Source: a virus
Taxonomy: Duplodnaviria; Heunggongvirae; Uroviricota; Caudoviricetes
IMG/VR virus record: IMGVR_UViG_2565956635_000009
Location: 1 to 25,288 of that record
Length of the DNA: 25,288 nt
Strand: one strand, 5' to 3'
Shown: positions 9,960 to 11,077 of the stretch, one piece after another
Position numbering within the stretch: the stretch's first letter is position 1
Layout of the letters: each line of letters opens with the position of its first letter
The notes under the pieces: generated by a model
What the model saw: only the letters and a program-made list of their open reading frames with translations
Database searches by the model: none
What the model was told of the DNA's origin: nothing
Made by a program: the position numbers and the translations under genes

Positions 9960-10036
9960 GTGGCATTAGCTCAGTTGGACAGAGCAACCGCCTTCTAAGC
10001 GGTTGGTCGCAGGTTCGAATCCTGCATGCCACGCCA
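9960..10036 (+). tRNA. tRNA-Arg, anticodon UCU (argU-like), phage-borne
   Basis: Cloverleaf folded by hand: acceptor stem GTGGCAT/ATGCCAC, D-arm GCTCAGTTGGACAGAGC, anticodon stem ACCGC/GCGGT with loop CTTCTAA (anticodon TCT at 9994..9996), T-arm GCAGGTTCGAATCCTGC, discriminator G, encoded CCA. Very close to my recollection of E. coli argU. Confidence 0.9.
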
Positions 10037-10079
10037 GAATCACGCCTAAGGACCGTGATGCCAGAAGTTCCAGGTGCTT

Positions 10080-10122
10080 GGCGGTGATAGTTTCCCTTGA
10101 AGGACTATCACCGCCCTTTTTA
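10080..10122 (+). terminator. Rho-independent terminator after the tRNA
   Basis: 12-bp stem GGCGGTGATAGT ... ACTATCACCGCC followed by CTTTTTA. Confidence 0.7.
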
Positions 10123-10199
10123 CAGCAGGACGCCATTGCGATGACTTCATGCTGTAAACCCGTACAGCCACGGAAGGCATAACTCATTGCTTCCAGTTC

Positions 10200-10223
10200 G
10201 CCCGGTTCGCCGGGCATTTTTTT
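10200..10223 (+). terminator. Second rho-independent terminator, just upstream of the moron promoter
   Basis: GCCCGG-TTCG-CCGGGC hairpin followed by ATTTTTTT. Confidence 0.65.
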
Positions 10224-10228
10224 GCTTG

Positions 10229-10257
10229 ATGACCGCAAATTACCTTAAAGGTATAAT
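10229..10257 (+). promoter_or_regulatory. Moron promoter (-35-like ATGACC, consensus -10 TATAAT at 10252..10257) overlapped by operator-like site TTACCTTAAAGGTAT (10240..10254)
   Basis: Perfect TATAAT with a 17-bp spacer from a 4/6 -35; the imperfect TTACC-N5-GGTAT palindrome overlaps the -10. Confidence 0.45.
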
Positions 10258-10258
10258 C

Positions 10259-11077
10259 ATGAAAAACTTCAAGGTAATTAGCATGTTTGAATCCTTCAAA
10301 GAGCTGTTTTTATCTACTGCCAATACTGCCGTGAATCGAGCCAAAAACCCTGTGCTTGGTGCTTTTGTTATGTCCTGGTGCGCCTTCAACTGGAAATCAA
10401 TTCTTTATCTATTTTTTAGCAAATCAAACATAATAGATAAAATTTCATATATCTCAGATAACAGCACATGGAAAACTGTTATGTTTTATCCATGCTTATC
10501 TGTAATTGCTATCTGCTGCCTATTACCATGGGTAAACAATATCATTAACGTATGGCAAGCAAAGCCTCTTGATAATAATGACTCAATCGATAATCACCTG
10601 AAGGCAAGAAAAATCCAGCGTGAAACCAGACTGCAGAGGTTATTGGCTAAAAAAGATGTTACATACGACAAAGTTAAGACTGGCGCGGAAAAAGACATCC
10701 AAGAGATGAAAGAAGAGATTATTCGATCAAAGAATAGTATGGGGGAATTGACTGCCGAGTTGAAAGCTAAAGATGACGAATTGAGATCCGCCAGTGCTCA
10801 GTTAGCAGCTCTAAATCATTCATTAAAAGAGATATCGGAAACTCTGGGAAGAATGAATGAGGCATATAAGACCCTCCAAAATGATTTCGACGAATACAAA
10901 CTCAAATACCCTGAAAAATCTCAAATAAAAAGTCTTGCACTTGGCAACGGCCAAACAATTAGCAACTTTTTGGAGCAACACAACTTATCCGGATTAAAAT
11001 CTGGTAAGCCAGACGTTTTTAATAACTTTGGTGTTCTATCTGGATTATCAGGTTTCGAGGATAAAAATAAAGACTAA
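10259..11077 (+). CDS. AT-rich moron protein: two predicted transmembrane segments plus long C-terminal coiled coil, unknown function (candidate exclusion/defence or conversion factor)
   Basis: ORF in the track; I prefer ATG 10259 (AAGG site) or ATG 10283 (AAGGT site; the only one downstream of the TATAAT) over the track start at 10187. Hydrophobic stretches PVLGAFVMSWCAFNWKSILYLFF and TVMFYPCLSVIAICCLLPW, then a Lys/Glu/Leu-rich heptad-like region. Visibly AT-rich compared with neighbours; 5 of 8 Arg codons are AGA/AGG; convergent with terL. Confidence 0.7.
   Translation: MKNFKVISMFESFKELFLSTANTAVNRAKNPVLGAFVMSWCAFNWKSILYLFFSKSNIIDKISYISDNSTWKTVMFYPCLSVIAICCLLPWVNNIINVWQAKPLDNNDSIDNHLKARKIQRETRLQRLLAKKDVTYDKVKTGAEKDIQEMKEEIIRSKNSMGELTAELKAKDDELRSASAQLAALNHSLKEISETLGRMNEAYKTLQNDFDEYKLKYPEKSQIKSLALGNGQTISNFLEQHNLSGLKSGKPDVFNNFGVLSGLSGFEDKNKD

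Follow-up and report, generated by a model that had tools for sequence, protein, structure and literature searches.

Between the portal and large terminase genes of a temperate phage of Escherichia coli, an AT-rich gene lies next to a phage-borne tRNA gene, and the question raised by this locus is what the gene does and whether the tRNA belongs to it. The DNA is a 25,288-nucleotide (nt) stretch of virus record IMGVR_UViG_2565956635_000009 (Caudoviricetes), which we refer to as the window; it covers part of a temperate E. coli podovirus that is epsilon15/phiV10-like (Uetakevirus-type). An earlier note on this DNA, made from its sequence alone, had singled out the locus. Here, we refer to the AT-rich gene and its control region as the cassette. 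Sequence comparisons indicate that its protein clearly belongs to a large, uncharacterized family in mobile elements of Enterobacterales and that the gene is a real, selected, and mobile accessory gene.

The cassette protein and its family

The RefSeq/PGAP annotation starts the cassette gene at the ATG at 10259 (272 amino acids), which is 2 nt past the -10 hexamer of the promoter described below and ahead of the predicted transcription start (near 10264). PHROG 4780 and nearly all homologues begin instead at an MFES/MLES methionine that corresponds to the ATG at 10283, and a Shine-Dalgarno sequence (AAGGT, 10271-10275, + strand) can be read 8 nt before this codon. Because of these homologue starts, the placement of AAGGT, and the proximity of ATG 10259 to the -10 hexamer, the true start is probably at 10283. 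This gives a coding sequence of 264 amino acids at 10283-11077 (+ strand, stop included), with a membrane domain (residues 1-95), a conserved stalk (92-160), an allele-specific coiled coil (161-210), and a disordered tail (211-264).

The protein is a full-length member of PHROG 4780 (E = 4e-137, profile positions 1 to 267 of 275), for which no function is annotated; PHROGs 13369 and 35327, both of unassigned function, share its N-terminal part. Close homologues, at 50 to 75% identity, are "hypothetical proteins" of Escherichia, Salmonella, Citrobacter, Enterobacter, Klebsiella, Leclercia, Cronobacter, and other genera, and a profile search of a 5.8-billion-protein set returned only close relatives among the matches listed. 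Searches of Pfam, NCBIfam, PADLOC, and Protein Data Bank (PDB) sequences with the protein gave only coiled-coil noise. When the cassette protein and 65 family members were compared with PADLOC-DB 2.0, the only matches were coiled-coil matches to SMC, JetC, LmuB, and DndD. No Pfam or PADLOC domain was shared among 65 diverse members of the family, and the named members were all labeled hypothetical. A Foldseek search of BFVD with a first structural model (see below) found no match, and no description of the family was found in the literature. The statement in the earlier note that the protein resembles nothing recognizable thus held, as the domain, defense, and structure databases gave no informative match.

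Using residues 1-165 as a phmmer query, we recovered 140 cluster representatives at E<=1e-10. In nearly all of them, the N-terminal domain constitutes the protein's own N terminus and is followed by 60 to 350 variable residues. Residues 1-160 are strongly conserved, with 56 invariant columns in 41 sequences, and the last ~100 residues are unalignable between allele groups. Near-invariant positions in a 65-sequence alignment include R19, P23, G26, F28, W32, N36, W37, S46, P70, and P82, and the N-terminal signature reads R-x2-N-P-x2-G-x-F-x3-W-x3-N-W. The ratio of nonsynonymous to synonymous substitution rates (dN/dS) is 0.07 to 0.09 for residues 1-160, which denotes strong purifying selection; the C-terminal part either is relaxed (dN/dS of 0.22 to 0.24 between orthologues) or has been replaced. 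A spurious open reading frame (ORF) was ruled out by the dN/dS values together with the conservation.

The two parts of the protein also differ between alleles, for which C-terminal identity is 24 to 36% versus 61 to 91% at the N terminus. At the nucleotide level, the promoter and codons 1-161 are ~90% identical in 16 E. coli records, after which the sequences part abruptly and completely. E. coli PCN033 provides an example of a switched C terminus in the same slot and beside the same tRNA. We conclude from these alignments that the C terminus changes by modular exchange. A tblastn search of phages with the variable C terminus found only the orthologue in Klebsiella phage KO-TP1 and no sign that another phage protein is mimicked. 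Separately, distant members in P2-like prophages (at 5001-6545 and 5001-6191 of the stretches examined) carry long C-terminal tails with short tandem peptide repeats, namely, EQSAMSAAWAAATK four times and TNPTLxxDTLKRA three times. The variable module may generally end in low-complexity repeats of this kind.

We next consider how the protein might sit in the cell. A first AlphaFold2 (AF2) model, based on 41 close homologues, was of low confidence (predicted local distance difference test [pLDDT] of 66), and a later model used a diverse alignment. The latter (pLDDT of 84.5) contains short helices at residues 2-19, 23-35, 37-45, and 50-60, followed by one continuous helix spanning residues 63-208 and a low-confidence tail. 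Hydropathy analysis identified a strong transmembrane (TM) segment at residues 65-91 (KD19 of 2.15). The hydrophobic segment before it, at 22-45, is marginal, with a KD19 of 1.2 in this copy and a family mean of 1.56 (range, 0.9 to 2.1). Two TM segments and a long coiled coil had been proposed; the model contains the long helix, the second TM segment is strong, and the first is close to the threshold throughout the family. Across the family, the N-terminal 21 residues are net positive, the loop at 46-64 is net negative, and the 30 residues after the second TM segment are net positive, a charge distribution that favors a hairpin with both termini inside and a cytoplasmic stalk. Together with the model, this suggests an inner-membrane protein, either bitopic or a hairpin, in which a single helix of ~145 residues would run from the membrane into a stalk that is most likely cytoplasmic and less probably periplasmic.

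Family members occur as single genes and were AT-rich relative to their flanks in every case checked, and their genomic contexts are diverse. The slot between terL (large terminase) and gp3 is occupied by members in epsilon15-like phages of E. coli, Salmonella, and Klebsiella (BUCT711), as well as in EC.W1-9. In lambdoid prophages, members are solitary genes of opposite orientation that separate the replication genes from the nin genes. Distant members in P2-like prophages (one Pantoea and one metagenomic) lie exactly between gpA and the portal gene; members in Klebsiella phage-plasmids are found between the tail-fiber genes and parA; and one Cronobacter member is at a chromosomal locus. No conserved partner gene was seen across the contexts examined, and a candidate small partner gene upstream in the P2-like contexts was rejected since the two small ORFs concerned are unrelated. 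More than 20 records of Klebsiella IncFIB conjugative plasmids hold a 102-amino-acid N-terminal fragment (4001-4309 of the stretch examined) that is truncated by IS1 and adjoins a DUF1778/GNAT toxin-antitoxin pair.

Cassette boundaries and the neighboring tRNA gene

The cassette is set in a phage backbone that closely resembles phiV10, and comparison of the two delimits it. The window is 98% identical to phiV10 over 9500-10223; homology stops at 10223, the sequences are unrelated from 10224 to ~11073, and homology resumes from the terL stop codon. This break and resumption place the mobile insert at 10224-11077 only, so that it would consist of the promoter, operator, and ORF, situated between terL (11074-12549, - strand) and gp3/portal (a gp3-like ORF at 9326-9532 and the portal gene at 7632-9311, PF12236, both on the - strand). 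As the earlier note had stated, the gene is convergent with terL: its TAA (11075-11077) overlaps the terL TAG (11074-11076), and no terminator separates the two genes. The AT-richness that had been noticed by eye was also confirmed in windowed GC content, which is 36 to 40% over 10200-11100 (37% for the gene itself) versus 51 to 58% in the flanks. Over the 2-kb region around the cassette, phiV10, O157 typing phages 9 and 10, TL-2011b, and others are 97 to 98% identical across just 54 to 58% of the length. About 500 E. coli records match part of this region at >=95% identity, and only 40 cover >=80% of it. A match in E. coli strain IH5 was set aside because it falls in a scrambled region of pseudogene fragments.

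Related prophages, in which the presence or absence of the insert had been proposed as a check, carry other cargo between identical flanks. In phiV10 and epsilon15, the slot holds a gene of 121 to 123 amino acids (p03/p50, PHROG 322), and in TL-2011b it holds an unrelated 115-amino-acid repeat protein. The TL-2011b cargo gene (2534-2881 of the stretch examined) has 39% GC and MSGDV-type repeats reminiscent of bactofilin/polymer-forming repeat proteins. The slot between terL and gp3/portal is thus swap-prone and accepts at least three unrelated types of cargo.

The term moron, used for the locus previously, fits in part. Lambdoid morons (Juhala/Hendrix) are extra genes with their own promoter and terminator and a foreign composition that are independent of phage regulation. 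The cassette shares with them its absence from close, collinear relatives, its own promoter, and its deviant base composition. Unlike them, it has no downstream terminator of its own, and its promoter is apparently wired to the prophage repressor. The only hairpin found in a search for a terminator downstream of the gene lies within the ORF (11000-11013) and is weak, with a 5-bp stem, whereas the phiV10 cargo gene ends with a terminator. Because it lacks this element, the cassette gene is not a textbook moron.

A copy in the Klebsiella lambdoid phage KO-TP1 bears on how the cassette moves. It is preceded by the spacer and second terminator of the epsilon15-type backbone (described below) and followed by ~150 nt of the terL 3' end, and therefore an epsilon15-type slot was the source of this copy. 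The segment that was taken up starts past the tRNA, at the equivalent of 10112. The terL remnant, which is of epsilon15 type, is a noncoding scrap at 4796-4946 of the stretch examined and is a footprint of cassette capture across phage families.

Upstream of the cassette lies a tRNA-Arg(UCU) gene, argU-like and with an encoded CCA (9960-10036, + strand). The prediction of this phage-borne tRNA was borne out by ARAGORN (anticodon TCT) and by the Rfam tRNA model (RF00005, 73.3 bits versus a threshold of 29). Two tandem intrinsic terminators had been reported as well, and both were located on the + strand. Terminator 1 (10080-10121; hairpin at 10080-10115) has a 14-bp stem followed by CTTTTT and would end the tRNA transcript. 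Terminator 2 (10200-10223; hairpin at 10200-10215) is GCCCGG-TTCG-CCGGGC with a T7 tract (6 GC pairs plus ATTTTTTT), and its stem shows compensatory changes across relatives. Between them is a structured, conserved spacer (10116-10199, + strand; fold z = -2.75) with the hairpin TTTACAGCAGG...CTGTAAA, and the ~110-nt segment at 10116-10223, which includes the hairpin TTTACAGCAGGACGCCATTGCGATGACTTCATGCTGTAAA, is conserved in sequence. The spacer is retained in epsilon15, which has no tRNA, and has also moved with the cassette into lambdoid phages. An Rfam scan matched the tRNA only, even at E<=5, and gave no match for the spacer. The segment at 10116-10223 could act as an insulator, form the 3' trailer of the tRNA, or encode a small RNA.

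Two further observations concern the tRNA region. A promoter-like site on the + strand at 9594-9623 could drive the tRNA, and its -10 adjoins an operator-type dyad at 9623-9637. In addition, an ORF of 83 to 90 amino acids (9966-10238, - strand) runs antisense over the tRNA and terminator 1. It is annotated as hypothetical in phage records (phiV10 PhiV10p04, TL-2011b gp24, and EC.W1-9 WYA78230) and is most likely an annotation artifact.

The earlier note had suggested that the tRNA, both terminators, the promoter, and the gene form one insert and that the tRNA and gene travel as a unit. The promoter and gene do belong to the insert; the tRNA, both terminators, and the spacer are instead backbone common to phiV10-like E. 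coli phages. What spoke for a co-adapted pair, with the tRNA supplied for the AGA/AGG codons of the gene, was that the two are adjacent on the same strand and that five of the eight Arg codons in the cassette gene are AGA or AGG (4 AGA, 1 AGG, 1 CGT, and 2 CGA), a count that we confirmed. The corresponding figure for the 28 other ORFs in the window is 55 of 399 (14%; Fisher p=0.002). The pair nevertheless dissociates in both directions, which ruled out a travelling unit. In phiV10, an identical tRNA, terminators, and spacer accompany different cargo. Conversely, a 70%-identical, 264-amino-acid orthologue sits in the same slot of Salmonella epsilon15-like prophages without the tRNA, and no tRNA was found within 5 kb of the gene in the four Salmonella, Klebsiella, and Cronobacter loci examined. 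The AGA/AGG codons are as common in tRNA-less copies (18 of 36 Arg codons) as in tRNA-adjacent ones (14 of 23; p=0.44). Two terminators also lie between the tRNA and the gene, and the unit captured by KO-TP1 starts after the tRNA. It is therefore very improbable that the two are a co-travelling pair.

Because AGA/AGG codons are equally frequent without the tRNA and more numerous in the backbone, which has 11 times the number in the cassette gene (55 versus 5), the codon match is best read as an effect of AT-richness. The tRNA-Arg(UCU) gene thus appears to be a separate backbone gene serving the whole phage. More than half of the backbone AGA/AGG codons (31 of 55) are in the early region at 13261-18323, and these early/replication genes are the likeliest clients of the tRNA. 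A 271-amino-acid DnaT/HTH_36 protein of this region has nine AGA/AGG codons alone. More generally, this negative result means that a phage tRNA beside an AGA-rich gene is no evidence of a functional pair.

Promoter, predicted operator, and prophage repressor

A promoter with a perfect TATAAT had been noted ahead of the gene, and we found it at 10229-10257 (+ strand), with a -35 of ATGACC (10229-10234), a 17-nt spacer, and the -10 at 10252-10257, together a 10/12 match to the sigma-70 consensus. It is the best-scoring promoter of the region and is conserved upstream of every close homologue in E. coli, Salmonella, Klebsiella, and Cronobacter.

Overlapping the promoter spacer and -10 is the dyad ATTACC-TTAAA-GGTATA (10239-10255), which matches 10 of 12 positions of ATTACC-N5-GGTAAT (9 of 10 in the core). 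The earlier note had called this an operator-like site, and it does match an operator consensus that is over-represented in the window. Seven sites are marked as "repressor" in the GenBank record of epsilon15, and each of them reads ATTACC-N5-GGTAAT, identical to the window consensus. Allowing up to one mismatch, the window contains 10 TTACC-N5-GGTAA sites, 7 of them perfect, versus a mean of 0.66 and a maximum of 4 in shuffled sequences. The sites, each 15 nt long, are in intergenic control regions. They precede terS (12546-13220, - strand, PF03592; sites at 13142 and 13160) and gp3/portal, occur in the replication/early region (16612 and 16674), and flank the repressor gene on either side (18957, 19005, 19717, and 19779). 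The site upstream of gp3/portal, a perfect dyad at 9623-9637, is at the same position as an epsilon15 "repressor" protein_bind feature. The presumed ligand of these operators is a prophage repressor with an HTH_3 domain (19075-19659, + strand), a homologue of epsilon15 gp38 and SPC32H Rep that is 42% identical to gp38 and matches the SPC32H repressor structure (PDB 5D50, E=4e-42).

In epsilon15-like prophages, cassette alleles retain the operator half-sites even where the 5-nt spacer differs, and the site is perfect in EC.W1-9. No operator dyad was found at the slots of phiV10 and TL-2011b, which have other cargo, and in the KO-TP1 and Cronobacter copies of the cassette it is decayed or lost. 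These observations support the dyad at 10239-10255 as a predicted functional operator and make repressor gating of the cassette promoter plausible. Cassette expression is thus predicted to be held low in the lysogen and to increase when the prophage is induced or the phage infects a new cell. The distribution of sites further suggests that, in the epsilon15-type phage group, late transcription units as well as early ones are under direct control of the repressor.

Another feature of the promoter is a 9-nt inverted repeat (AATTACCTT / AAGGTAATT), with arms at 10238-10246 and 10272-10280, that encloses the -10. The second of these arms, a perfect GGTAAT half-site, overlaps the Shine-Dalgarno sequence; the repeat occurs only in the two E. 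coli alleles that have this version of the promoter. It might act in translation or serve as a second half-operator that works by looping.

With regard to the phage itself, NZ_CP079771.1 and NZ_CP079768.1 are 41,027-bp circular records from duck E. coli HL15 and SF10, and the whole phage is also chromosomal in the same assemblies. The phage can therefore excise, and the circular records beside an integrated copy indicate that the prophage spontaneously excises or replicates.

Candidate functions of the cassette

We tentatively favor, at somewhat less than an even chance, a reading of the cassette as a phage-versus-phage exclusion or abortive-infection module. In this proposal, the conserved N-terminal membrane domain would be the effector, blocking the passage of DNA across the inner membrane or permeabilizing the membrane, and the variable C-terminal coiled coil and tail would set which competitor phage is recognized. 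The prophage repressor, bound to the near-consensus operator, would keep the promoter repressed as long as the lysogen is quiescent; induction, or infection of a new cell, would free the promoter and raise expression. The best clue to function, albeit an indirect one, is the residence of distant members between gpA and portal in P2-like prophages, a locus known as the old/tin hotspot that houses many validated anti-phage systems (Rousset et al. 2022, PMC9122126). This residence makes the candidacy for superinfection exclusion or abortive infection, which was already raised in the earlier note, a reasonable one.

Several points weigh against this proposal. Hotspot location is a weak predictor of defense, as just 15 to 32% of the unknown proteins in the P2 hotspot have a computational antiviral signal (PMC13586616). 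The topology is derived solely from the positive-inside rule, the first hydrophobic segment is weak in this copy, and a cytoplasmic coiled coil is not an obvious geometry for blocking DNA entry. The right half of the operator deviates from consensus (GGTATA instead of GGTAAT) because it doubles as the -10, and the epsilon15 "repressor" sites are depositor annotations. Finally, a gene whose task is to protect the lysogen would not usually be placed under a repressor-gated promoter.

The cassette protein belongs to no catalogued defense family, and its likeness to known systems is one of lifestyle only. P22 SieA, too, is a small protein of the inner membrane that acts as a single gene product; its gene has its own promoter and lies among the virion genes of a temperate enterobacterial podovirus, in opposite orientation to them. 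SieA is also present in only some relatives and has highly divergent sequence types. SieA differs, however, in having no long coiled coil, in occupying one locus in P22-like phages, and in being expressed in the lysogen, whereas members of the cassette family occur in different phage types and the copy in the window has a predicted repressor operator. Membership in the SieA family was rejected (BLASTP E=0.8; hhalign probability of 0.85%), and the SieA motif FxRYPxEAxxFNK (Leavitt et al. 2024, PMC10883804) is absent from the cassette protein. SieB of P22 and lambda, which causes abortive infection and is expressed from its own promoter within the early-left operon, is also a single-gene, oppositely oriented system of temperate enterobacterial phages. 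It differs from the cassette protein in size and architecture, no internal Esc-like start is evident in the cassette gene, and SieB membership was likewise rejected (BLASTP E=2; hhalign probability of 0.4%). T4 Imm and Sp are small membrane proteins of lytic development that keep out secondary phages; they are encoded by a virulent phage and have no coiled-coil stalk. The cassette resembles them in its operator-predicted lytic expression pattern, a likeness by description only. As for the old/tin cargo of P2, the cassette slot is also a variable terminase/portal-adjacent locus with alternative cargo, but it is in another phage lineage, and none of the validated P2/P4 systems in PADLOC matches the protein.

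The operator that enters into the proposed mechanism can be read differently. The same operator type precedes the terS, gp3/portal, replication, and immunity-region units, which would place the cassette in the lytic regulon, and a membrane protein with a long stalk, made after derepression, could serve the resident phage's own lytic cycle by modulating lysis timing or holin function, by anchoring replication or assembly at the membrane, or by countering a host defense. We regard such a helper role as rather unlikely. The gene is dispensable, as phiV10, epsilon15, and TL-2011b are without it; family members are found in prophages of podo-, sipho-, and myovirus type, whose lysis and assembly systems are unrelated, and also as a chromosomal orphan; and a hypervariable C terminus fits an arms race better than housekeeping. 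That same C-terminal swapping, together with residence in a defense hotspot, is more typical of inter-phage conflict than of a lysogenic-conversion or bacterial fitness factor acting outside phage competition, for example, in envelope stress tolerance or colonization. A conversion factor would suit an AT-rich, self-promoted prophage gene that is found widely among gut Enterobacterales from humans, poultry, swine, and cattle. In the favored topology, though, the protein is largely cytoplasmic; it has neither a signal peptide nor a lipobox nor a surface domain; and operator gating argues against constitutive expression in the lysogen, all of which make this role improbable.

A bolder form of the exclusion proposal is possible but doubtful, namely, that the cassette represents an undescribed, widespread family of modular single-protein anti-phage effectors in which the continuous helix of TM segment and stalk joins a conserved membrane domain to interchangeable cytoplasmic coiled-coil "sensor" cassettes. 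Such a family would move between podo-, sipho-, and myovirus prophages and, in epsilon15-like phages, would be wired to the repressor as an exclusion switch of the lytic phase and not of the lysogen. If the family does exclude or abort competitors, the defense repertoire would gain a small membrane system made of one gene, with a specificity module that can be swapped, and the terL/portal slot of epsilon15/phiV10-like phages would be a defense hotspot comparable to P2 old/tin. The repressor-operator wiring would then mean that an acquired accessory gene has been adopted into the regulatory circuit of the resident phage. Because the family is common in prophages of E. coli, Salmonella, Klebsiella, Citrobacter, and Enterobacter, such an activity would also be relevant to phage therapy and phage typing of these pathogens.

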